Assembly: GCA_963820485.1 (NCBI GenBank)
Contig: CAWFZW010000003.1
Location: forward strand, 567-64,566
Length of the DNA: 64,000 nt
Source of the DNA: Candidatus Nealsonbacteria bacterium
GTDB taxonomy: Bacteria > Patescibacteriota > Minisyncoccia > Minisyncoccales > JBGOYX01
Direction of reading: 5' to 3'
Shown: piece after piece, positions 426 to 53,326 of the stretch
How positions within the stretch are numbered: the first letter of the stretch is position 1
Layout: every line of letters begins with the position of its first letter
The notes under the pieces: model-generated
The model's input: only the letters and a program-made list of their open reading frames with translations
Databases searched by the model: none
Told to the model about the DNA's origin: nothing
Position numbers and translations under genes: made by a program

Positions 426-457
426 ATCAAGGTTCTTGCCGAAGGCAAGGTTCTTAT
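426..457 (-). repeat. Family-A palindromic element, copy A1 (ATAAGAACCTTGCCTTCGGCAAGAACCTTGAT in gene sense)
   Basis: Matches 9 other copies. Its TAA (454-456) is the stop codon of ORF 454..804. Confidence 0.75.
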
Positions 458-804
458 ATTTTTCTAATTAAAATTTTGTGCCAGTCGGAATAATCGTAAA
501 TTCCCTGAAAGACCCAACCACCTAAAATTCCGAAGGAGAAAGGAGCAAGTGGAAGAGAAAATTTAAAAATTAATACTGAAATTAAAATTCCTAAACCAAA
601 TATCCAATGATGTAAATGCAATCGCCGATCTCCAATATTAAAAACCCTTGATTTAATTATTCCTAATTGGCCAGTTTTCTTTCCAGAAAGAATTTTTGAA
701 ATGATATAACCAAAAATTATTCCAAAATAAATTTCTAAAGAAATTAATGCGACAGGTATAGTGAAAAAAATAATTTTTGACTTTATTAATCTGAATTTTA
801 TCAT
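454..804 (-). CDS. small integral membrane protein, function unknown
   Basis: 116-aa ORF with about 3 hydrophobic helices. I recognise no family. Confidence 0.5.
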   Translation of the reverse strand: MIKFRLIKSKIIFFTIPVALISLEIYFGIIFGYIISKILSGKKTGQLGIIKSRVFNIGDRRLHLHHWIFGLGILISVLIFKFSLPLAPFSFGILGGWVFQGIYDYSDWHKILIRKI

Positions 805-1184: not shown

Positions 1185-1192
1185 ATTTATTG

Positions 1193-1275
1193 TGGGTAGG
1201 GAGGGACTTGCACCCCCGAAGGCCAGTGGCCGCCAGATTTACAGTCTGGTGCGTTAGCTACTCCGCCACCTACCC
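1193..1275 (-). tRNA. tRNA-Tyr (anticodon GTA), class II with long variable arm
   Basis: Reverse complement GGGTAGGTGGCGGAGTAGCTAACGCACCAGACTGTAAATCTGGCGGCCACTGGCCTTCGGGGGTGCAAGTCCCTCCCTACCCA. Anticodon loop is CTGTAAA. Confidence 0.85.
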
Positions 1276-1438: not shown

Positions 1439-1458
1439 TTAATTATATACTATTTTAT

Positions 1459-2143
1459 CTATTTTTCAATGGTTTTTTGGCGTTTTTTCCTCCATTCTTT
1501 GATTTTTTTATGATGGCCAGATAATAAAACTTTTGGTACCTTCCAATAAATTCCTTTTCTGGGGAAGAAAACTTCCGGCCTGGTATATTGCGGATATTCA
1601 ATAAATCCTTTTTCTTTAGTAATTCTTTCTTTCAATAATTCTGCTTTCCCTAAAACTCCGGGAATCAATCTGGAAATCGTTTCCATAACTATCATTGCCG
1701 GCAATTCTCCGCCCATTAAATCGTAATGTCCTATTGATAATTCCATATCGGCGATATGTTTTGCCACTCTTTCATCTACTCCTTCATACCTGCCGCAAAT
1801 TAAAATTATTTGATTAAGTTTAGAAAGTTTATAAGCTATTTTTTGATTAAATTGCTTTCCCCTCGGCGTAAATAAAATTATTTTTGATTTTAGATTTTTG
1901 ATTTTTGATTTTGAATTTTAAAAATTGAATCGCTTTGAAAATAGGTTCAATTTTCAGAACCATTCCCAATCCCCCGCCATAGGGCCTGTCGTCAACTGTT
2001 TTATGTCGGTCATTCGTCCATTTTCTTAAATTATGAACGTTAATTTTAATTAATTTCTTTTTTTGTGCCCGCGAAATCAAACTCTCTTTTAAATAAGAGT
2101 TGAACATTTCGGGAAAAATAGTAATAATATCAAAATTTAACAT
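1459..2143 (-). pseudogene. trmD: tRNA (guanine37-N1)-methyltransferase TrmD, interrupted by one +1 frameshift (possibly an assembly indel)
   Basis: The two ORF-track fragments join as ...KSKIK|IILFTPRGKQFNQKIAYKLSKLNQIILICGRYEGVDERV... The shift is in the A5 run at about 1881-1885. Confidence 0.8.
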
Positions 2144-2202
2144 AGGATAAGAAATGAAAACCGCGCTACAAATAATGATAGCACGGTTTTCGGTTTTGTA
2201 AA

Positions 2203-2280
2203 ACCCCGTTAGAGAGCTTTTCTCTAAAGAAGTTTACTCAATATTTGTCCCGTTAAAAATTAAGTAATCTCTAACGGGGT
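2203..2280 (-). promoter_or_regulatory. F-family intergenic structure (ACCCCGTTAGAGA ... TCTCTAACGGGGT inverted repeat with an internal competing CCCGTTAA)
   Basis: 13-bp inverted repeat seen directly. A related element lies at 31805-31937. Confidence 0.35.
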
Positions 2281-4032: not shown

Positions 4033-4320
4033 CTATTCAATTATCCTCCCCGCGATCTCCTTGATGACCTTTCTTACGGCGACTTTTCTTTTGGAGAGAA
4101 ATCCTTTTTTAACGAGAACTTCTTCAAAAATCGTCAGCCGATCCTTACTGATTTCTACTATGTCCCCGATGAACTCATCGGGCCCAAATAAATCAATAAG
4201 ACGCCCCATTCCAGGAGACTTAAGGGTTTTTAGATGAAATTTATCATCTGTTCCCCTTGTTAGTTCGTACTCCGCAGGCTTAAAACACGGGTGATATTGC
4301 ATCTTGATGATCATTTTCAT
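4033..4320 (-). CDS. hypothetical protein, 95 aa
   Basis: ORF preceded by GAAGGAGAAAAAAATG. Confidence 0.5.
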   Translation of the reverse strand: MKMIIKMQYHPCFKPAEYELTRGTDDKFHLKTLKSPGMGRLIDLFGPDEFIGDIVEISKDRLTIFEEVLVKKGFLSKRKVAVRKVIKEIAGRIIE

Positions 4321-4403
4321 TTTTTTCTCCTTCTTCCCGAAAGAAAAATTTTTATGCCAGTCTCCAAGATCCCCTTGAACCGCTGACTCGGACCACTATT
4401 TTC

Positions 4404-7994: not shown

Positions 7995-8279
7995 TTACTT
8001 TCGAGAAAGTTCTTCCATTGTTAACGGTTTTGCCTTGCCTCCTTCTTTTTCTTTTGACTTCATTTCTTTTTCTCTTTTCTTTCTTTCTTTTTTTGTTAAT
8101 TTTTTCAAAACGTCAATTATTTCCACTCCTTTATAATACCCGCAATTCCAGCAAATGGTATGGGGCAAAACCGGTTTTTTACATTTCGGGCACAATGATA
8201 AAGTTGGCGCTTTGGCGAAAAGGTGCATTCTTCTTTTGTTTCTTCTTGATTTGGTGTGTTTTTGTTTTGGAACAGCCAT
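7995..8279 (-). CDS. rpmF: 50S ribosomal protein L32 with Lys-rich C-terminal extension
   Basis: [17 protein letters not shown] plus CPKC...CWNC zinc ribbon. Confidence 0.85.
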
Positions 8280-8436
8280 TGTGGTAACACAAAATTAGTC
8301 GCGGCACGTCCCGCTTTCGGCGGGACTAACACCGCTCTTTAGAAACCCTCTGTTTCTAACGTCCCGATTTCATCGGGACTGTTTTCCTACACGGGGAAAC
8401 CGAATGGTTTCCCCGACCCCCTTCCGATGTGGAATG
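8280..8436 (-). ncRNA. E-family structured element, copy 2 (ends 2 nt before the rpmF ATG)
   Basis: Four hairpins: GGGGAAACC/GGTTTCCCC, GTCCCGAT/ATCGGGAC, TTAGAAAC/GTTTCTAA and GTCCCGC/GCGGGAC. Homologous to 1276-1438 and 53167-53326. Confidence 0.5.
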
Positions 8437-8479
8437 TTATTTAAAAAATAATTACAACTGAATTTTATGTTAGCAGAAA

Positions 8480-9151
8480 TTATTTTATTTTGCAACCCCT
8501 GATTGGCCGAAATGATTTTCGGTGAATTTTACAGGGACCGTATTTTTTTAGCATTTTGAAATGGTATTTTGTCGGATATCCTTTATGATTATTAAAACCG
8601 TATTTAGGATATTTTTTATGGTATTTTTGCATTATTCTGTCTCTGGTCACTTTAGCTAAAATGGAAGCTGCAGCGCAGGAAAAAACTTTTTCATCGGCTT
8701 TAATTATGGACTTTTGAGGAATATTTATTTTTAATCTCATGTTTCCGTCAAGAATAAGAAAATCAGGTTTTGATTTTATTTTTTTTATCGCCTTTTCCAT
8801 TGCTAATTTCGTTGCTTCTAAAATATTTATTTTATCAATCACTTTTTCAGAAACTATTCCTATCCCCCATTTAATTTTTAGTCCGCCAGGCGGCGGATTT
8901 ATTATAAGTTTAAAAAATATCTCTCTTTTTTGAGAAGAGAGTTTTTTTGAGTCTTTAATTTTTGAAAATTGGTCCGCCAGCTGGCGGATTAATTTTTGAT
9001 TTTTTAACATTACTGCTGCGGCAGTCACCGGACCTGCCAAAGGTCCTCTTCCTGCCTCATCCAGACAAGCTACTCTTTTGAATCCTTTTTTCCACAATCT
9101 TTTTTCTTCATTTAAGTTCGGGTGTTTCATAAAATTAGTAAATTTTATCAA
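8480..9151 (-). CDS. rnhB: ribonuclease HII
   Basis: CLDEAGRGPLAGPV active-site motif. Confidence 0.85.
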   Translation of the reverse strand: MIKFTNFMKHPNLNEEKRLWKKGFKRVACLDEAGRGPLAGPVTAAAVMLKNQKLIRQLADQFSKIKDSKKLSSQKREIFFKLIINPPPGGLKIKWGIGIVSEKVIDKINILEATKLAMEKAIKKIKSKPDFLILDGNMRLKINIPQKSIIKADEKVFSCAAASILAKVTRDRIMQKYHKKYPKYGFNNHKGYPTKYHFKMLKKYGPCKIHRKSFRPIRGCKIK

Positions 9152-9222: not shown

Positions 9223-11409
9223 TTAGGGCCAAGAGCAATTATCCGGTTGCCAAGGTGGACATTTTCCTAATAACATATAACCCCAAACGCCATAAGTGTG
9301 AGGAGGGCATCTTCCACTTAAAATGCACTCTACCATTGCTCGATGGATTTTTAATTCATTATAAGAATGCATCACTAATTTTAAATCTAATGCTTTTAGC
9401 GGTTCTTCACTTATAAGTTTTCTAATTAAATCACAAATACCACTTCCTTCGCAGATTCCTCCGCTGGGACTACTCAAAATCGATAAAATTTCATTAAGAT
9501 TGGGATGGTCAGCGCCATATTTCATTCGATATCTTAACCGATTGTTAATAAAAGAAAGTTGATACCATTTATCTAAAATACCTTTAACGTCATCGGTAGC
9601 AGTAAGTTTTGAGGGGAAACCAGCTGTTACCATCCATTCGTAAGGAATGGCGATATGCGAAGCCATTGAAGGAAAACCAGGAATAACTTTTCCATTCCAC
9701 ATAAAGTTGCACCCTCCTCCGGCGGTATCCCAACTAAATCCTGAAATAGTAATTCCGGGAGCTGTTAAACCATCTAAAGAAGGACAAGTACCAGGAGCTG
9801 GAGCACTGGTACAACCCGAAGTATCGTAAGTACAATTTTGAGTACATTCTAATTCACCGTCTGTGAAATTTGTGGAAAGATCTTTACAGTATTTTTTACC
9901 TGCTAAATCTGTTCCATCGCATTGTTCTCCAAACTCTGCTTTATTATTATGGTTACAAGTAGTCGAAGCGGCAACACATTTACCGTTACTACAAGTGCCA
10001 GGACTACAGTCATGAGTAGTTAATTTACAACTCGTTCCATCACAATACCACTCAGTTAAAGTTTTGCCATCAGTAGAACAGGAATCGGTTCCTTTAGTGG
10101 TTAAACCAGCACAAGTTGAACCTTCTTTACAAGTTCCTTTTACGTCCCAAATTTGACCGCTATCACTGTCATCACAACGTAAAGCACAACCTGATACGCA
10201 GTTAGTTACTGAAGGACAACATTCTGTACAATCAGAAGCACCTGAAATTCTACCAGAAATGCAAACCTTAGCACCGGTACAACAGCTCCCTCCTAATTGG
10301 GAGCAGGTTTTAGTTGGGGCAGCACATTCAGCAGTAGTGGTGCAGGTGTTAATCCCACAAGTATTTAGTGAGACGCAATTACCACTTATACATTCTTTAT
10401 GGGGTTTAGTTTGACCGTTAGGACAGGTAGTAGAAGGAGGAACTCCAGCAACGCATTTCCCTCCTTCACAACGGCCGGAACTGCAGCTGCGGTTCACCGA
10501 CGTACAAAATCCTGTACTTCCAACAATACATTCGTTTATGGTGGTTCCGTCGCTCCCGCATTTATCTTCACATTTCACGACGCCGCCCATGGTACATCGC
10601 CCAAATATATCCAATTTTTCACCGCCATCACTATCCTGACCCATGCACCGAGAATCATTAGACGTACACTTAGCACACCAACATTCCAAGGGAAAAATAC
10701 AGCCAGTCCCCCAAACTCCAACGCTTTGCCACTCTCTCCATTGAGAAGCACTGCAAAAAGCCCACTCGCCATTGTCGGGACTATTACAAGCGCCATTACT
10801 GGGATTGCCAATATTACATTTTCCCCCGACAAATCCTTTTGATTGGCAGTACGCCTTACATTGACCGTTATTACTTTGGGGAGCCTGACAATAATTCTTA
10901 GTACAACAAATTTGGTTTGAATGTGAATTTTTGTCGGTTGGATCGGTTACTTGAGAAGTATAATTATTTAAACCGCAAGTATAATTCTGCTGGCACCATT
11001 CCGCACCTAATTGAGCGCAGGTTTTAGTCTGAGTACTGCTGGTATTGCAGCTACCACCAAAACAGCCGTATCCTTTTGAGCAATTCCAACTTGCACATCC
11101 TCCAGAACAAACCTCATATCCACCGCTAGCAGTATCACAATCACAAAAAGCCCCCATTAATCCGCCACTCTTACAGCTAAATCTATAATGATAATTTCCA
11201 TCGCAAAAATCATAAGGACCGTCTGGGCAATCAGTACACCAATCGTTAGCACTTGCAGTTACACCCCCGGAGGTAAACGTGCGACCGCAGACATTTGAAG
11301 AAGTTAGAGCGGTTGCTGAATTATTGCCTATCAAATAAAATAAAACTCCTCCTGAAACTCCAAGGCCGATAATTCCGCTAAATAATATTATAAAAAATTT
11401 TCTTTTCAT
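9223..11409 (-). CDS. secreted or anchored hyper-cysteine-rich protein, 728 aa, with a distinct ~190-aa C-terminal domain
   Basis: N-terminal hydrophobic anchor. Cysteine-dense repeats. One stretch (FGEQCDGTD...CTQNC) resembles Myxococcus-type Cys-rich repeats. Confidence 0.6.
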   Translation of the reverse strand: MKRKFFIILFSGIIGLGVSGGVLFYLIGNNSATALTSSNVCGRTFTSGGVTASANDWCTDCPDGPYDFCDGNYHYRFSCKSGGLMGAFCDCDTASGGYEVCSGGCASWNCSKGYGCFGGSCNTSSTQTKTCAQLGAEWCQQNYTCGLNNYTSQVTDPTDKNSHSNQICCTKNYCQAPQSNNGQCKAYCQSKGFVGGKCNIGNPSNGACNSPDNGEWAFCSASQWREWQSVGVWGTGCIFPLECWCAKCTSNDSRCMGQDSDGGEKLDIFGRCTMGGVVKCEDKCGSDGTTINECIVGSTGFCTSVNRSCSSGRCEGGKCVAGVPPSTTCPNGQTKPHKECISGNCVSLNTCGINTCTTTAECAAPTKTCSQLGGSCCTGAKVCISGRISGASDCTECCPSVTNCVSGCALRCDDSDSGQIWDVKGTCKEGSTCAGLTTKGTDSCSTDGKTLTEWYCDGTSCKLTTHDCSPGTCSNGKCVAASTTCNHNNKAEFGEQCDGTDLAGKKYCKDLSTNFTDGELECTQNCTYDTSGCTSAPAPGTCPSLDGLTAPGITISGFSWDTAGGGCNFMWNGKVIPGFPSMASHIAIPYEWMVTAGFPSKLTATDDVKGILDKWYQLSFINNRLRYRMKYGADHPNLNEILSILSSPSGGICEGSGICDLIRKLISEEPLKALDLKLVMHSYNELKIHRAMVECILSGRCPPHTYGVWGYMLLGKCPPWQPDNCSWP

Positions 11410-11411
11410 AA

Positions 11412-12056
11412 TTAAAAACCGAATAAACTATCTATTTCGCCTTTTATCTTCGATCCAGTCTGAAGCGTAGAATCACCTATTTGAGCCATCATGCCGGGAT
11501 TTGATAAAAGTTGGGAAAGGGAAACAGCCGGATCGTGTGGCCAGTCCGTAGGAGGTTGAGTTATTTCTTGACAATCGGTGACAGAAAAACAACAATCAAT
11601 ACAGTCAGAAGCGCCTGAAATTCTACTGACAGGATTGCAAATTTTATCTGAAGGACAACAAGTTCCGTTTAATTGAGAACAGGTTTTAGTGGCAACGGGG
11701 GTGCCGTTCTGAGCAATCGGTTTCTCTATCCCCATAACATTCATCAAAATAGTCGGGATGGCGGCCGCAAAAATCACGACTGCAATCCCAATCACTCCAT
11801 AAAATAGGGTTTGTTTAGCTTTAGCTATTTTATCAGGTGCACCAGCCGAAGTTAAAAATTGAAAAGCCCCTACCAATACCACGATTATAGCAATAGGAGC
11901 TAAAAATAAATAAGCAAATTTTCTAATTGAATCGAAAATCTCAAAAAGACTTTGAAATTTGGTATATGGCCCAAACTCTATTGCATTAGTTAAAAAGGGA
12001 ATTAAAAAAAGAAAAAGTAAAACTAAGATTAAATTAAATACTGGAAATTTTCTCAT
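11412..12056 (-). CDS. TrbC/VirB2-like (T4SS-pilin-like) membrane protein with a Cys-rich C-terminal extension
   Basis: Signal peptide plus two helices flanking FLTSAGAPDKIAKAKQTLFYGVIGIAVVIF, then TKTCSQLNGTCC...DCIDCCFSVTDC. Confidence 0.55.
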   Translation of the reverse strand: MRKFPVFNLILVLLFLFLIPFLTNAIEFGPYTKFQSLFEIFDSIRKFAYLFLAPIAIIVVLVGAFQFLTSAGAPDKIAKAKQTLFYGVIGIAVVIFAAAIPTILMNVMGIEKPIAQNGTPVATKTCSQLNGTCCPSDKICNPVSRISGASDCIDCCFSVTDCQEITQPPTDWPHDPAVSLSQLLSNPGMMAQIGDSTLQTGSKIKGEIDSLFGF

Positions 12057-17137: not shown

Positions 17138-18748
17138 GTGAGGGTAAAAAATAATATGTCAGAACTATCTCAACCAACGCGAAAATTAATCTCCCGCTAT
17201 CAGGTTTGGCACCAATCTTTACAGCCAAAAGGAAATTCAGCCACAATTCACGTGGATGAGGTCGCGTCAAGGGTGGCTGCTTTTTATGAAAAAATAAGGG
17301 GGGTTGTCGATTGGCGGGAAGAGCATCTGATGAGAAAAGCGGCAATTGAAAGAAATTTAAAAAGAAGATTACTTTTAAAGCAAAACGGAGATGATATTGC
17401 CACCCACTTAGTGTCAGAACTAATCCGAGGAGGTCATTTTCCGAATGATAAAATTGAAGAATCTAAAATTTTAGAGGTTCAAAAAGCGATTGATAAATAT
17501 ATTTTTATTCTTGAAAATGCTCCCTCTCCTTCGGTTGAAAAATTAAAATTTCAGCTTTATGACTGGATTTTAGGAGTGGCTGCCTGTGAAGTTGAAGCAA
17601 TTTTAGACCCTCCCCAGAGAGAAATTGCTTTAATTGAATATATGGAAGAGATAATGAAAGAAAGAATTAAATTAAGTGCTGTAATTAAAATTTCAGAAGC
17701 TGAAAAAGAAACTCAAATTTATGTCGCTATTCAAAAAGCTCTTTTCAAATTTGACCCGCCTTTAATTTATTACAACCTCCTAAAAAGAGAATATATTGAT
17801 TGGAAAAATCTTCCTTCCTCACTCTTGGAAGAAATAACAAAAAACATTTATCAAATCTGGGAAAAACTTGAAAAAACAGTTTTTCATCCTTTGGCTGAAA
17901 AATTTTATAGAATTTGCGAAAAATACGACACTCCCTTTTTAATTCTAAACGATATAATTTCAGCCAATCCTTCAGAAAGCCAGAAAAATTTAGATAATCC
18001 TGAAATTTTAGAAAGTCAAATTCAAACCGCCTATAACAAAAGGTTGGGAACGCTCAAAGAAAGATTAAGCCGGGCAGCTCTTTACGCAACACTATCTATT
18101 TTCATTACCAAAATGTTATTGGCTTTAGCGATTGAAATTCCTTTTGATAAGTATGTAACCGGCCAATTTTCTTATCCCGCTTTGGGGTTTAATATTGTAA
18201 TTCCACCACTTTTAATGTTTTTCATTGTTTTATCTATCAGACCTCCCAAAAAAGAAAATTTCCAAGTGGTTATAATGGAGGTAATGAAAAATGTCTACAC
18301 AACTGAAAGAAAAGATGTTTATGAGATAAAACCGCGCTCAAAAAGAGGATTTATTATAAATACTATCATTACTATTTTTTATCTTTCAGCTTTCGTTGTC
18401 TCTTTTGGTTTGATTTTCTGGGGGCTTCAAAAAATAGAATTTGGAATTCTTTCCATAATAATCTTTCTTATTTTTATTTCTTTAATTTCTTTTGCCGGCG
18501 TGAGAATTAGGGAAAGGTCTAAAGAATTAGATATTATAGAAGAAAAAGAAACTATTTTTACCTTTTTCTTTGACCTTTTTGCTTTGCCTATTATTAGAGT
18601 CGGCAAATGGCTGTCGGGTCAATGGGCGAAATATAACGTAATCGTTGTTTTTATGAATTTTTTAATTGATATGCCTTTCCAGGTTTTCGTGGAATTTTTA
18701 GAGCAATGGAGATATTTTTTGAAAGAGAAAAAAGAAGAAATACATTAA
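17138..18748 (+). CDS. large membrane protein of unknown function (soluble N-terminal half, about 5 TM in the C-terminal half)
   Basis: 536-aa ORF. I recognise no family. Confidence 0.5.
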   Translation: MRVKNNMSELSQPTRKLISRYQVWHQSLQPKGNSATIHVDEVASRVAAFYEKIRGVVDWREEHLMRKAAIERNLKRRLLLKQNGDDIATHLVSELIRGGHFPNDKIEESKILEVQKAIDKYIFILENAPSPSVEKLKFQLYDWILGVAACEVEAILDPPQREIALIEYMEEIMKERIKLSAVIKISEAEKETQIYVAIQKALFKFDPPLIYYNLLKREYIDWKNLPSSLLEEITKNIYQIWEKLEKTVFHPLAEKFYRICEKYDTPFLILNDIISANPSESQKNLDNPEILESQIQTAYNKRLGTLKERLSRAALYATLSIFITKMLLALAIEIPFDKYVTGQFSYPALGFNIVIPPLLMFFIVLSIRPPKKENFQVVIMEVMKNVYTTERKDVYEIKPRSKRGFIINTIITIFYLSAFVVSFGLIFWGLQKIEFGILSIIIFLIFISLISFAGVRIRERSKELDIIEEKETIFTFFFDLFALPIIRVGKWLSGQWAKYNVIVVFMNFLIDMPFQVFVEFLEQWRYFLKEKKEEIH

Positions 18749-25600: not shown

Positions 25601-26173
25601 TTATTTGGGTTCTTCGTTTAATCTGCTGGCTGTGGAGTTGTTTTGACCCGCATATTTATGATCTTTGTGTTTTAAATAAGGAATTTCAGCCGGAGAAGAA
25701 AGCGTCTCAAAAGTCAAAGCGCAAACTCTCATTCCTTCATATAAAATAATCGGCATAATACCAAGATTGCCCAATTCCATCACTGCTTTTCCTTTCCAGC
25801 CAGGATCAAATCTCGCGGCCGTTGAATGTACCACCAAACCCAATCTCCCCAAAGAACTTCTGCCATCAAGCCGAGCCATTATATCATCAGGTAAAATAAA
25901 TTCTTCTTTAGTGACTGCGATAACAAATTCTTTGGGTTGAAGAATAAAAGGCGCTCCCTCATCTACAATAACTTCTTCCATCACTTCCTCAAAACTTGTT
26001 TTTCTTTTCAAATCCAAATAAGGGTATTGGGTGGGTCTAAAAGTTTTAAAATTATTGCCAAGTCTTAAATCCAAAGAACAAGGACCTAATTGTTCATCAA
26101 AATTTGGTTCGGGGAAAATTAAAATTTTCCTTTCCTGTAAGTACTTCTTAATGTCTCTGTCTGAAAGTATCAT
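25601..26173 (-). CDS. dcd: dCTP deaminase
   Basis: ARLDGRSSLGRLGLVVHSTAARFDPGWKG. Confidence 0.85.
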   Translation of the reverse strand: MILSDRDIKKYLQERKILIFPEPNFDEQLGPCSLDLRLGNNFKTFRPTQYPYLDLKRKTSFEEVMEEVIVDEGAPFILQPKEFVIAVTKEEFILPDDIMARLDGRSSLGRLGLVVHSTAARFDPGWKGKAVMELGNLGIMPIILYEGMRVCALTFETLSSPAEIPYLKHKDHKYAGQNNSTASRLNEEPK

Positions 26174-47186: not shown

Positions 47187-48395
47187 TTAATTTTTAGCAA
47201 CCTTTTTAGCGGAATCAACATTGGGGGCAAACCTTTTTCCAAAAATTCCTCCACCAAGAATAAAAATACCGCCGAGAATAAATATCAAAGGATAGCCAAG
47301 AGGACCAATTATTAAACCGCCGATTATTGAACCTACGGCAATGGCTAAAGGCGCAAAAACCGTATCAACGGCAGCTGATTCTTCTGGATATTCCTTTAAT
47401 TTGGCGGTTAACAACCCCGACCTGCCCGATCCCGCCATTAATCCCCCGATATACTGTCCGAGTAATATGAAAAACGCAAAATAAAAATTCAGAATACTAA
47501 CTAATCCTCCTAATAAAACCGAGAAAATACCCGTAATTTGACTGCCGCGGGAAACATTTATCTCGCTTTTGAATTTAGCGACTTGTTTTATTACCCAAAT
47601 GGAAATTGGCAAAAACACCAAAGATAATAGTGAATTAAAAAATAAAATTTTGTTTTGCGACCAGCCAAGATTTTTCAAAAATAAAACAAAAAATGTATTA
47701 TTGAACCCCGCCAGCATCAAAACTAAAAAGGAAAGAGAAATAAAAAATGAAATATCTTTTTTCTTTATACCGCTTAAAACTTTCAAGTAATTATTGTTTG
47801 ATTCTTTAATCGTAATATTTTCAGTTAAATTAGTTGTTTGTTTTCTTAATTTGGTAAAGCAGAAAATAGCATTAAAAACCTGTAAAACCAAACTTAAAAC
47901 GAAAACGCCGATGAAATCAAATTTCCAGATAAAAAGAGCTCCGACTGCCGGCGCTATTGCATCAGCATAAGAGGGAGCTGAATAATACCAGGCGAAACTT
48001 CTATCTGGGTTTTCTAATTTGGAACCCATTAAAATTGCCCGAGAAGAAACAAAAAACAGAGACGCTGAAATGCCCAAAATTATCTGAAATAAATAAAAAA
48101 CAAAAAGATTCGGGAAAAAAATCATTCCCAATGCATAAATTCCATATCCGAAAATTCCGACAGCCGTTAAAACAGCGGGATTTATTCTGTGATTTAAAAA
48201 TCCGATTATTGGGGCAAAAAGAGCGATTGGTAAATAAATCAAAAAATTAGTGTAGCCGATTTGGGGTAAAGAAAAATTTTTCGCCACCAAAAATAAAGGA
48301 AAATAAAGAGAAAAAAGCTTATAGCCGAACATTAAAAGAAAATGCGATATCGTCGCATCTCTGGTAATTTTTTCAATTTTCGGAAAAATGGACAT
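47187..48395 (-). CDS. MFS-type transporter
   Basis: About 12 TM, 402 aa. Confidence 0.6.
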   Translation of the reverse strand: MSIFPKIEKITRDATISHFLLMFGYKLFSLYFPLFLVAKNFSLPQIGYTNFLIYLPIALFAPIIGFLNHRINPAVLTAVGIFGYGIYALGMIFFPNLFVFYLFQIILGISASLFFVSSRAILMGSKLENPDRSFAWYYSAPSYADAIAPAVGALFIWKFDFIGVFVLSLVLQVFNAIFCFTKLRKQTTNLTENITIKESNNNYLKVLSGIKKKDISFFISLSFLVLMLAGFNNTFFVLFLKNLGWSQNKILFFNSLLSLVFLPISIWVIKQVAKFKSEINVSRGSQITGIFSVLLGGLVSILNFYFAFFILLGQYIGGLMAGSGRSGLLTAKLKEYPEESAAVDTVFAPLAIAVGSIIGGLIIGPLGYPLIFILGGIFILGGGIFGKRFAPNVDSAKKVAKN

Positions 48396-52214: not shown

Positions 52215-52246
52215 ATCAAGGTCCTCGCCGAAGGCGAGGTTCTTAC
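52215..52246 (-). repeat. Family-A element, copy A8; supplies the rpoA stop codon
   Basis: ATCAAGGTCCTCGCCGAAGGCGAGGTTCTTAC. The TAA at 52243-52245 is the rpoA stop. Confidence 0.75.
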
Positions 52247-53166
52247 TCTTTTAACTCAAATCCGAATTTTTTCAATATTTTTTTAATTTCTTTTATTCCC
52301 TTTTCTCCCATACCTTCCAATTCCAAAAGACTCTTCTCGCTTCTTCTTATAATTACGCCGAGTGTTTGAATACCGTTATTTTGAAGAGCATGAAGTGTCC
52401 TTTTTGAAAATTTTAAGTTTTCAATTTTTGTTTTTAAAACGTCTTCTCCTGGAACCGCTTTTATTTCCGGTTTTTTTTCTTTTACTTTAAAAGCTTCGCC
52501 AATTAAAGAAAAATGTTTAGCTAATATTTCCGAGGCCTGAGAAAAAGCCGTTTCCGGGGTAGTTGTTCCGTCGGTTTCAATCTCTAAAAATAATTTGTCA
52601 AAATCCGTTCTTTCACCTACCCGCATATTCTCCACTCGAAAAGCTATTCTTTTTATTGGAGTAAAAATAGCGTCAATGGCAATTACTCCAACTTCTAATT
52701 TCTCTTTTTTTCTTCTTTCAACGGTTTCATATCCTAATCCTTTTTCAACGAGAATTTCCATTTCAAGCTCCGATTTTTTATCGGTTAAGGTGGCAATATG
52801 GGCATTTTTGTTTATTAATTCTAATTGAGCGGGCAACTCAAAATCAGACGCTTTTACTTCTTTTTCGCCTTTTACCTTAAGGTTGGCTCTTTGAGATTCA
52901 TCAGAATAAATTTTAAATCTAAGCTGTTTCAAATTTAATAAAATTGTAATCACATCTTCTAAAATCCCGGGAACTGTTGAAAATTCATGGGGTACTCCCT
53001 TAATTTTTACCTGAGTAATAGCTGCTCCCGGTAAAGAAGAAAGTAAAACTCTTCGCAGTGAATTTCCAATTGTTACTCCATATCCGGGATACAATGCTTC
53101 TATCTCAAAGACGACAGTGTTTCCCTTTTTTTCAATAATTTTTGGTTGAAGTGGTAATGGTATCAT
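52243..53166 (-). CDS. rpoA: DNA-directed RNA polymerase alpha subunit
   Basis: N-terminal domain GNSLRRVLLSSLPGAAIT and C-terminal domain. Confidence 0.9.
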   Translation of the reverse strand: MIPLPLQPKIIEKKGNTVVFEIEALYPGYGVTIGNSLRRVLLSSLPGAAITQVKIKGVPHEFSTVPGILEDVITILLNLKQLRFKIYSDESQRANLKVKGEKEVKASDFELPAQLELINKNAHIATLTDKKSELEMEILVEKGLGYETVERRKKEKLEVGVIAIDAIFTPIKRIAFRVENMRVGERTDFDKLFLEIETDGTTTPETAFSQASEILAKHFSLIGEAFKVKEKKPEIKAVPGEDVLKTKIENLKFSKRTLHALQNNGIQTLGVIIRRSEKSLLELEGMGEKGIKEIKKILKKFGFELKE

Positions 53167-53326
53167 AGTAGTAATATAAAGTTAATCGCTCGCCCTCATC
53201 CAGCCTTACGGCTGGCGGTTGCCTGAGGTAACCTTCGGGCTCGCTCTTTAAAAACTCTCTGTTTTTAATATTTTCCTACACGGGAAAACCGAATGGTTTT
53301 CCCGACCTCCTTCCGATGTGGGATTT
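53167..53326 (-). ncRNA. E-family structured element, copy 3 (ends 1 nt before the rpoA ATG, starts just after the rpsD stop)
   Basis: The core is conserved, with compensatory changes (GGGAAAACC/GGTTTTCCC; TTAAAAAC/GTTTTTAA). The variable 3' domain is replaced. Confidence 0.5.

Follow-up and report, generated by a model that had tools for sequence, protein, structure and literature searches.

Messages can begin with structured leaders that have no Shine-Dalgarno (SD) sequence, as in Escherichia coli rpsA, or with split ribosome-binding sites, such as that of T4 gene 38. SD-like sequences can also act far upstream in a 5' untranslated region (UTR), where the sequence termed STAB-SD binds the 30S subunit and blocks RNase J1 (PMC4113751). 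Pneumococcal BOX and the ERIC and Correia elements are modular spacer repeats with a predicted RNA fold, and effects on the expression or processing of downstream genes have been reported for them (PMC3049150). Here, we analyze a 64,000-nt stretch of contig CAWFZW010000003.1 (GCA_963820485.1, positions 567 to 64,566), referred to as the window, in which an earlier note made from the letters alone had pointed out three similar elements of about 160 nt. We call the family the E element and use the copy at 8280 to 8436 (minus strand), which precedes rpmF, to describe its parts.

The E element appears to work most like the known 5' stabilizers and the modular, cotranscribed repeats of the BOX, ERIC, and Correia kind. 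It differs from these in its fold, in its strict sense orientation, and in having its 3' end at the first base of the downstream gene. Judged by sequence and distribution, the element is a lineage-restricted, multicopy, modular RNA cassette of Nealsonbacteria-like Paceibacteria. Our preference, held tentatively, is for a cis-acting leader or intercistronic cassette that would stabilize the downstream RNA and present an unstructured, SD-less start. Bacteria of the Candidate Phyla Radiation are uncultured, and their gene expression signals are almost unknown. The E element is a complex, covariation-supported RNA of about 160 nt that is not in Rfam and that follows an unusually strict positional rule before protein and tRNA genes alike.

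A sense-strand structured RNA in three copies

Three co-oriented copies lie on the minus strand of the window at 1276 to 1436 (copy 1), 8280 to 8436 (copy 2), and 53167 to 53325 (copy 3), as the earlier note had said. When aligned, they have a mean column identity of 76%. Exactly three matches to the 25-nt core GGTCGGGRAAACCATTCGGTTTYCC are present in the window, and none turned up in 100 shuffles. A covariance-model search, which had been proposed as a check, found exactly three copies in the 64 kb and none further, with copy 2 scoring 148 bits (E = 7e-34). Folding against dinucleotide shuffles gave z values of -5.3, -3.9, and -3.8 for the three copies. The core words quoted earlier proved correct, as did both compensatory changes in copy 3, from GGGGAAACC/GGTTTCCCC to GGGAAAACC/GGTTTTCCC and from TTAGAAAC/GTTTCTAA to TTAAAAAC/GTTTTTAA.

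Copy 1 is the leader of a transcription unit of tRNA-Tyr, tRNA-Thr, rpmG, and tRNA-Trp and has orthologues at loci L029 and L030. Copy 2 is a full cassette between the rnhB stop codon (8480 to 8482) and the rpmF ATG (8279). Copy 3 makes up the whole rpsD-rpoA spacer and carries a perfect AAGGAGGU in its purine tract. The 3' ends fall 0 to 2 nt before the downstream feature, just as claimed: copy 1 ends in TTACCAC plus CT before the tRNA-Tyr +1 base at 1275, copy 2 in TTACCAC plus A before the rpmF ATG at 8279, and copy 3 in TTACTAC plus T before the rpoA ATG at 53166. The 5' distances had been put at 10 to 25 nt from the upstream stop codon; they measured 2, 22, and 43 nt. By Pfam, the neighboring genes encode L32, RpoA, S4, RNase HII, and TrmD.

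The E element is a modular fold of about 160 bases that runs, from 5' to 3', through a C-rich word, a polypurine tract, a P2/P4 core, the P3 and P5 modules, and a tail. In copy 2 (all positions on the minus strand), the 5' word CAUUCCAC at 8429 to 8436 has a C-run able to pair with the G-run of the purine tract. This candidate hairpin, P0, is 83.5% paired and has no two-sided changes; the pairing is compatible with the data. The polypurine tract CGGAAGGGGGUC (8415 to 8426) is followed by hairpin P2, CGGGGAAACC-AUUC-GGUUUCCCCG (8392 to 8415; 98.9% paired, four pairs with two-sided changes), and by the conserved single-stranded linker UGUAGGAAAACA (8380 to 8391). The optional hairpin P3 comes next (8361 to 8379), then hairpin P4, UUAGAAAC-AGAGG-GUUUCUAA (8339 to 8359; 97.7% paired, three pairs with two-sided changes). 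The variable domain P5 is of type B in this copy, GCGGUGUUAG...GUGCCGC with a GAAA-capped inner hairpin (8301 to 8335). The unpaired, G-poor tail GACUAAUUUUGUGUUACCACA (8280 to 8300) contains no SD sequence, and the distance from GCGA to the A of the ATG is 19 nt.

P2 (10 bp) and P4 (8 bp) are the invariant hairpins and are connected by conserved linkers (GUAUAGGAAAA and AGAGC). P3 and P5 are exchangeable, and many of these hairpins have GNRA loop caps. P5 comes in at least two unrelated types, both with GNRA-capped subhairpins, and the tandem G.A pairs at its base in type A correspond to G-C pairs in type B. The peripheral hairpins reported earlier as swapped or absent are identifiable as P3, which is missing from copy 3, and P5, which is of type A in that copy. 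The P3 of copy 2 recurs as the same hairpin sequence in the tRNA-Tyr copy of L030, which is one example of how modules recombine between copies.

Covariation in P2, P4, and the base of P5 exceeded all 500 of 500 column shuffles and every slid control, in an alignment that was fitted to the model and whose copies are mutually related. In P5 type B, a run of three G.U pairs identifies the sense strand as that of the RNA. The E element is a real sense-strand structured RNA with covariation. A long-range closing helix, P1, formed by CGGAAGGGGGUC and a 3' strand after GCGA, was considered and dropped. It looks plausible by eye and in some minimum-free-energy folds; its duplex energies are no better than those of random 13-mers in 13 of 15 copies, and it is strong only in L010b and L011. 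The G-run has alternative partners, namely, P0 or, in L010b and L011, the 3' strand.

The earlier note could match the element to no RNA family, and the same held for Rfam 15 (4,227 models), with which the whole window gives only six tRNAs at the gathering threshold. The set includes RNase P, signal recognition particle RNA, 6S, tmRNA, T-box, riboswitches, ribosomal protein (r-protein) leaders, HEARO, ROOL, GOLLD, and raiA; the RNase P models did not match the element. A permissive Rfam scan (E of ≤10) of copy 2 had a best E of 0.7, with 17 bits where the gathering score is 80, and the same scan of the four-copy locus L005 gave no common match at the element core, only noise. The hammerhead, twister, twister-sister, pistol, hatchet, hepatitis delta virus (HDV)-like, hairpin, and glmS ribozyme models found nothing even at an E of ≤10. 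A full-text literature search found no description of the element.

We also examined individual words and classes of element. By eye, CUAAAGAG...CGA resembles the hammerhead pattern CUGAUGA...GAAA, without the invariant G5 and A14. Resemblances to the CR-I/CR-V words of RNase P RNA, to loop E of 5S rRNA, to the hammerhead core, to rRNA boxA, and to a tRNA-like 3' ACCA gave no model match and no consistent pairing. A transposon of the miniature inverted-repeat (MITE) type was rejected, as terminal inverted repeats and a target duplication are both missing. An integron attC site is a single long imperfect hairpin with R''/L''-L'/R' cores, located between mobile cassettes. The E element has a multihairpin fold and neighbors that are core genes in conserved order, and an attC origin was rejected as well. 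An IS200/IS605-derived element or a TnpB guide (omega) RNA would be expected to have tnpA or tnpB beside it, or subterminal hairpins and a fixed tetranucleotide target at its left end. The flanks were examined, and the genes flanking the three window copies are housekeeping genes. Homology between copies continues beyond the CCAC word on its 5' side, which shows that CCAC is not part of the flank. A phage origin was discarded after a relaxed pattern had no match in viral contigs. The E element is outside all of the curated RNA families tested and is of neither the MITE nor the attC kind.

Position before genes and transcription context

A degenerate pattern search of 185,579 species representatives matched three metagenome-assembled genomes, all apparently Paceibacteria-like, although two are otherwise labeled. 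Eight true metagenome loci also contained the pattern. Judged by RpoA and SecY homologues, the window itself belongs to Nealsonbacteria-like Paceibacteria. Profile and covariance-model searches of the fetched loci brought the total to 18 distinct full copies, window included. Every one of the 18 is in sense orientation relative to the following gene and directly abuts it; that gene is protein coding in 15 cases and tRNA-Tyr in three.

The genes served in the window are tRNA-Tyr (GUA; 1192 to 1275, minus strand), whose +1 base is 2 nt past the TTACCAC of copy 1, rpmF (7995 to 8279, minus strand, encoding L32 and followed by nusB, rnc, and rpsP), and rpoA (52243 to 53166, minus strand), the two protein genes being identified by Pfam. 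Outside the window, locus L005 has four copies in 8.4 kb of the S10-spc operon, before rpsC, rplF, rplO, and secY. Other copies precede rpoA (L012), rplP and rplN (L022), rpsR (L007), groEL after groES (L011), and tRNA-Tyr (L029 and L030). Three further copies, at L010, serve frr, mreB, and a PD-(D/E)XK gene, assigned by N termini and synteny, and one at L003 serves a small open reading frame (ORF) that follows a perfect TTGACA-17-TAAAAT promoter. Most genes served are of highly expressed kinds (r-proteins, rpoA, secY, groEL, and the tRNA operon), and frr and mreB are also among them.

The distance from GCGA, at the end of P5, to the first base of the gene is 19 to 20 nt in 17 of the 18 copies. 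This spacing is kept at secY despite a different tail sequence; the sole exception is the rplF copy, with 11 nt. The tail has the consensus YYWAAYUUUGUAUUACCACU, is 19 to 20 nt long, unpaired, and G-poor, and ends at the first base of the gene, usually as ...UUUGUAUUACCACU followed by AUG. Position -1 is U in most copies. At the tRNA-Tyr copies, the tail ends in ACCACU before GGG in L030 and in AUCAAU before GGG in L029, so that the tRNA +1 base sits where the A of AUG sits in the mRNA copies. Beside this rule, the public SecY call at L005 (6994 to 8397, protein P0121) has 41 additional residues (467 versus 426 amino acids). Its start is misannotated because a TTG within the E element was taken as the start codon.

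Among the copies, no SD sequence was found within the last 15 nt before the start, one secondary case excepted. The SD-like sequence is instead the purine tract, 10 to 12 nt long and complementary to the anti-SD sequence, which lies 125 to 290 nt upstream of the AUG in 15 of 15 copies tested. Taking the anti-SD sequence as canonical (a generic 16S 3' end), the tract pairs with -11.8 to -16.5 kcal/mol (-15.6 kcal/mol in copy 2), which is in the top 0.15 to 0.8% of window 12-mers. The variants of the tract between copies are exclusively A-to-G or G-to-A changes.

Start signals in this genome are mixed: some genes are preceded by AAGGAGG, and many others have starts of the SD-less or leaderless type. 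Extended -10 boxes (TGnTAnAAT) occur 6 to 10 nt before the ATG, for example, at the minus-strand ORFs 11412 to 12056, 25601 to 26173, 47187 to 48395, and 57016 to 57636. This pattern suggests that many genes of the organism are transcribed as leaderless mRNAs. The tail was considered as a general ribosome-binding motif and rejected, as the TTACCAC-type word followed by ATG is restricted to E copies plus one tail-only remnant. It was also rejected as a DNA promoter for leaderless transcription, since its TATTAC is just 4 nt before the ATG and the final T is missing. The genome's own leaderless-type promoters, TGnTAnAAT at 6 to 7 nt before the ATG, are unlike it.

The earlier note had described a -10-like box before each copy. 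This is true of the tRNA copy, where a TATAAT at 1442 to 1447 (minus strand) is conserved identically in two other genomes and predicts a start at the first bases of copy 1, and it does not extend to the family. ATAA words are common at the 5' edges, many of them being stop codons, and a box of its own at every copy was rejected. Upstream of copy 2, a promoter-like TTGCAA-17-TAACAT (8467 to 8495, minus strand) overlaps the 3' end of rnhB and is conserved in L029 and L030. It lies about 30 nt further upstream of the element, with a predicted start about 24 nt before copy 2; a stricter consensus promoter scan flagged nothing before this copy. Given the conserved promoter-like site, copy 2 would be an internal part of the rpmF 5' UTR. 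The copies of the S10-spc operon start 2 to 12 nt past the preceding stop codon, and at L022, the S17 ORF enters the element by 50 nt and stops at a conserved UAG. Since copies occur both behind promoters and inside operons, we infer that the element is read as RNA within longer sense transcripts.

These positions bear on the idea of a stable, trans-acting small RNA, whose gene would be present in many copies, ride on strong promoters or operons, and obtain its 3' end by processing at the start of the downstream gene. The compact conserved core would agree with such an RNA. So would the tRNA-Tyr copy, which begins at a predicted transcription start and from which RNase P would release a discrete RNA. 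Against this, there is no terminator, most copies are without their own promoter, and whole modules differ between copies, while the operon positions right after stop codons and the ORF reading into the element suit a cis element better. Of the explanations considered, this one fits least, and we regard it as very improbable.

Gain, loss, and candidate functions

The rpoA copies of the window and L012 are 89% identical, in hosts whose RpoA proteins are about 68% identical over the aligned N-terminal part and whose rpoA genes agree at 53% of third codon positions. Three genomes with 80 to 84% identical RNase HII retain the tRNA-Tyr copy, its helices intact. At other sites, presence varies among relatives. 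Before rpoA, the element is missing from relatives with 90% and with 75 to 79% RpoA identity. L025, L026, and L027 have an unrelated A/T-rich spacer there (94 to 101 nt from stop to ATG), and the remaining E-less relatives have different short spacers. In the relative with 92% RpoA identity (L031), J4/5, P5, and the tail remain before the rpoA ATG, and the 5' half is deleted at a TAA microhomology. Before rpmF, the relative with 80% RNase HII identity has a plain 26-nt leader, and the relative with 84% (L029) retains just TTGTATTACCACT directly before the ATG. L002 has a 5' half alone that does not precede any gene.

This patchy presence, with remnants among relatives, marks a dynamic dispersed repeat. 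As far as these comparisons of sequence go, the family is such a repeat, its RNA fold nevertheless being maintained in place and its tail tending to survive deletions. The label of mobile structured repeat, offered in the earlier note, thus holds in the loose sense that the element is gained and lost between close relatives, and it fails for terminal inverted repeats. The best terminal match was no better than shuffles in 14 of 15 copies, the exception (L011) being its private closing helix. No target-site duplication was found at rpoA or rpmF, where the spacer of the relatives is replaced, not interrupted.

As a selfish dispersed repeat that brings its host no benefit, the element would be a small nonautonomous mobile element whose RNA or DNA fold serves its own propagation and which survives only where expression is undisturbed, that is, in spacers and in sense orientation. 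The absences and truncations before rpoA and rpmF in close relatives, the decaying copies (L002, L031, and the L029 remnant), the 89% identity between hosts with 68% RpoA identity, and the shuffling of modules all accord with this. The genomes also hold further spacer-filling repeats, including a hairpin element nested in two E copies. We nonetheless consider a purely selfish repeat improbable. Terminal inverted repeats and target duplications are missing, and the old spacer is replaced at rpoA and rpmF. Around the copies that were examined, neither a transposase nor a reverse transcriptase was seen, and viral contigs gave no match. The 18/18 orientation bias, the exact 3' boundary, the maintenance of helices in orthologous copies, and the strand-specific G.U pairs also stand against it.

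Any explanation must cover the sense-strand fold, the exact abutment and spacing that extend to a tRNA, the bias toward highly expressed genes, and the positions both behind promoters and inside operons. It must also cover an SD-like tract that stands at the 5' end, while the ATG has no SD sequence, and the rapid gain and loss with tail-retaining remnants. In the stabilizing cassette that we tentatively favor, the folded core and the SD-like tract would hold a 30S subunit and/or block decay that depends on the 5' end, in the fashion of a STAB-SD. The core would also shield the start region against the sequence and the translation upstream of it, and the tail would be the shortest spacer that leaves an SD-less AUG accessible just beyond the folded core. 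The cassette would spread among spacers by copy-and-paste or by recombination, swapping modules between copies, and would readily be lost by deletion, deletions that leave the tail beside the ATG being tolerated.

The likeness to a STAB-SD is that of an SD-like 5' UTR sequence too distant to direct initiation and complementary to the assumed canonical 16S 3' end. With STAB-SD, the cry3A leader, and the katG polypurine stabilizer, the E element shares an SD-like polypurine stretch more than 100 nt upstream, unable to direct initiation, and structure nearby at the 5' side of the protected RNA. A STAB-SD is a short sequence, whereas the E element is a 160-nt modular fold, and any 30S binding or stabilization by it is putative. 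Unlike the E element, a STAB-SD is not dispersed, stands at no set distance from the start codon, and is not known to precede tRNAs.

Several points weigh against a stabilizing cassette. P0 may tie up part of the purine tract in pairing with the 5' C-run, and the anti-SD pairing of the tract was computed with an assumed anti-SD sequence from which the host's own may differ. A stabilizer does not in itself require a tail that ends exactly at the first base of the gene, and the same tail and 19- to 20-nt spacing at the tRNA-Tyr copies are left unexplained. Recent spread, rather than purifying selection, could be the reason why copies in distant hosts are so alike. Finally, the coreless remnants show that some lineages can express rpmF and rpoA without the core.

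The coincidence of mRNA and tRNA first bases is best explained by a processing element that defines 5' ends. Such an element would be cut at its 3' edge, by self-cleavage or by a nuclease measuring about 20 nt from the core, and would yield leaderless, AUG-first mRNAs and a mature 5' end at tRNA-Tyr. ACCACU would then precede AUG in mRNAs and GGG in tRNA-Tyr (L030) at the same place. The ruler of 19 to 20 nt in 17 of 18 copies, the U at -1 in most copies, and the conservation of the tail at tRNA copies, where translation is irrelevant, agree with cutting at this edge. The many leaderless-type promoters imply that ribosomes of this organism probably accept a 5'-terminal AUG, and a complex fold with many GNRA loops and conserved linkers is ribozyme-like. 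An element that removes itself from the transcript would also be tolerated before essential genes.

Processing, which was among the candidates of the earlier note, is the main rival of the stabilizing cassette, and we still judge it to be unlikely. There is no Rfam ribozyme match and no recognizable catalytic core, and no pairing was found that docks the end of the tail into the core. Where a lineage has lost all but the tail or the 3' half, the gene is still expressed from an SD-less leader, which makes cleavage unnecessary; the cut at the tRNA can be put down to RNase P by itself. In addition, Giliberti et al. in 2012 reportedly found ribozyme-made 5'-OH ends to be poor for leaderless initiation in E. 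coli, which counts against processing. The self-cleaving ribozymes and the GIR1 lariat-capping ribozyme do have in common with the E element a complex fold directly 5' of the RNA end that is created, and the size of the E element (about 160 to 190 nt) is similar to that of GIR1; they differ from it in that the E element lacks a ribozyme match or a recognizable core. Known small ribozymes mostly cleave internally or at their own 5' side. Less probable again is the specific form of a self-removing leader, be it a new ribozyme or a structure-guided nuclease ruler, that cuts exactly at its own 3' edge. If this were true, self-removal would make insertion phenotypically silent, the element being for 5' leaders, at the RNA level, the analogue of an intron or intein, and would explain how the element colonized spacers before essential genes. 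Any cut at the 3' edge would mean a new kind of ribozyme or a new principle of RNA processing, and with it a natural way of making leaderless mRNAs. If, on the other hand, the element is a stabilizing or start-site cassette, a streamlined genome would be reusing one portable RNA module to drive its most highly expressed genes without SD sequences.

A gene set dominated by translation machinery raises the question of a regulatory aptamer, in which the core would bind a metabolite or a protein, such as an r-protein or some other regulator that binds RNA, and coordinate genes of the translation apparatus. The multihairpin core with its conserved unpaired linkers and GGA/GAGG words, the tandem G.A pairs in P5, and the alternative partners of the G-run would all suit an aptamer. 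However, no expression platform was found, as the tail and AUG are not consistently sequestered by any alternative helix, and there is no terminator. The targets also include the tRNA operon, groEL, mreB, and the PD-(D/E)XK gene, and no Rfam riboswitch or r-protein leader matches. With a very narrow distribution and fast turnover that would be unusual for a core regulatory circuit, we see an aptamer as quite improbable, more so than a selfish repeat.

Returning to the stabilizing cassette, two further comparisons are useful. BOX, ERIC, and Correia elements are, like the E element, present in multiple copies in transcribed spacers, with optional middle modules and strain-variable presence. They have terminal inverted repeats or palindromes, occur in both orientations, and stand at variable distances from genes. 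In contrast, the E element has no terminal inverted repeats, is multihairpin and nonpalindromic, is in sense orientation in 18/18 copies, and ends at the first base of the gene. The rpsA leader and T4 gene 38 share with it hairpins and conserved single-stranded linkers with GGA/GAGG words, the lack of an SD sequence beside the AUG, and highly expressed targets. These are single-gene arrangements rather than repeated cassettes, whereas the E element also precedes a tRNA; any recruitment of ribosomes by it is putative.

Neighboring genes and other repeats

Within the window, trmD is split into two overlapping ORFs (1459 to 2233, minus strand), with the Pfam domain tRNA_m1G_MT matched at 56 to 186 and 2 to 53 on separate frames. 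The gene is intact in L029 and L030. The split could be a frameshift, an assembly error, or a pseudogene. An alternative genetic code, considered when ORFs looked split, was rejected because table 11 gives dense coding and the trmD case is local. Pfam gave no match for the 728-amino-acid ORF beside rnhB (9223 to 11409, minus strand) or for the 116-amino-acid ORF after tRNA-Trp (454 to 804, minus strand), which is at the expected position of secE. On the antisense strand at 8361 to 8379 (plus), P3 together with TGTTTTCC scores as terminator-like. No convergent gene is present there, and the score is probably incidental.

A second repeat family forms a long hairpin with the termini CUUGCCCCGUUA...UAACGGGGUGAAG and occurs at L005 4413 to 4523 and 6859 to 6969. 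It is this hairpin that is nested in two E copies, before rplF and secY, where it takes the place of the GUAUAGG linker. L029 has a short relative between tRNA-Tyr and tRNA-Thr, at about 17680 to 17730. E-less relatives have other spacer-filling repeats in the same r-protein operons (L018 7702 to 8042, 8995 to 9281, and 9907 to 10000; L016 8705 to 8826; L021 1055 to 1120). These are arrays of short locus-specific words, such as CGCUGAU, UUCGCU, UACGAAU, and UCCGAAU. Before secY, L021 has a hairpin pair that starts with the E-like word CCGUCCCAUAUC.

In L023, the spacer before rpsC (4198 to 4376) contains CUUAGAAUUUAUUUCUAAGAGAGG, which is weakly like P4 plus J4/5 (covariance model, 8.8 bits; E = 4) and may be a decayed E remnant or a chance match. 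Upstream of rpsE in L005 (5611 to 5760), there are three tandem 48-nt units that have been called as an N-terminal extension (ARTLFLATLEIRTLPS three times). These units are probably another intergenic repeat rather than coding sequence.

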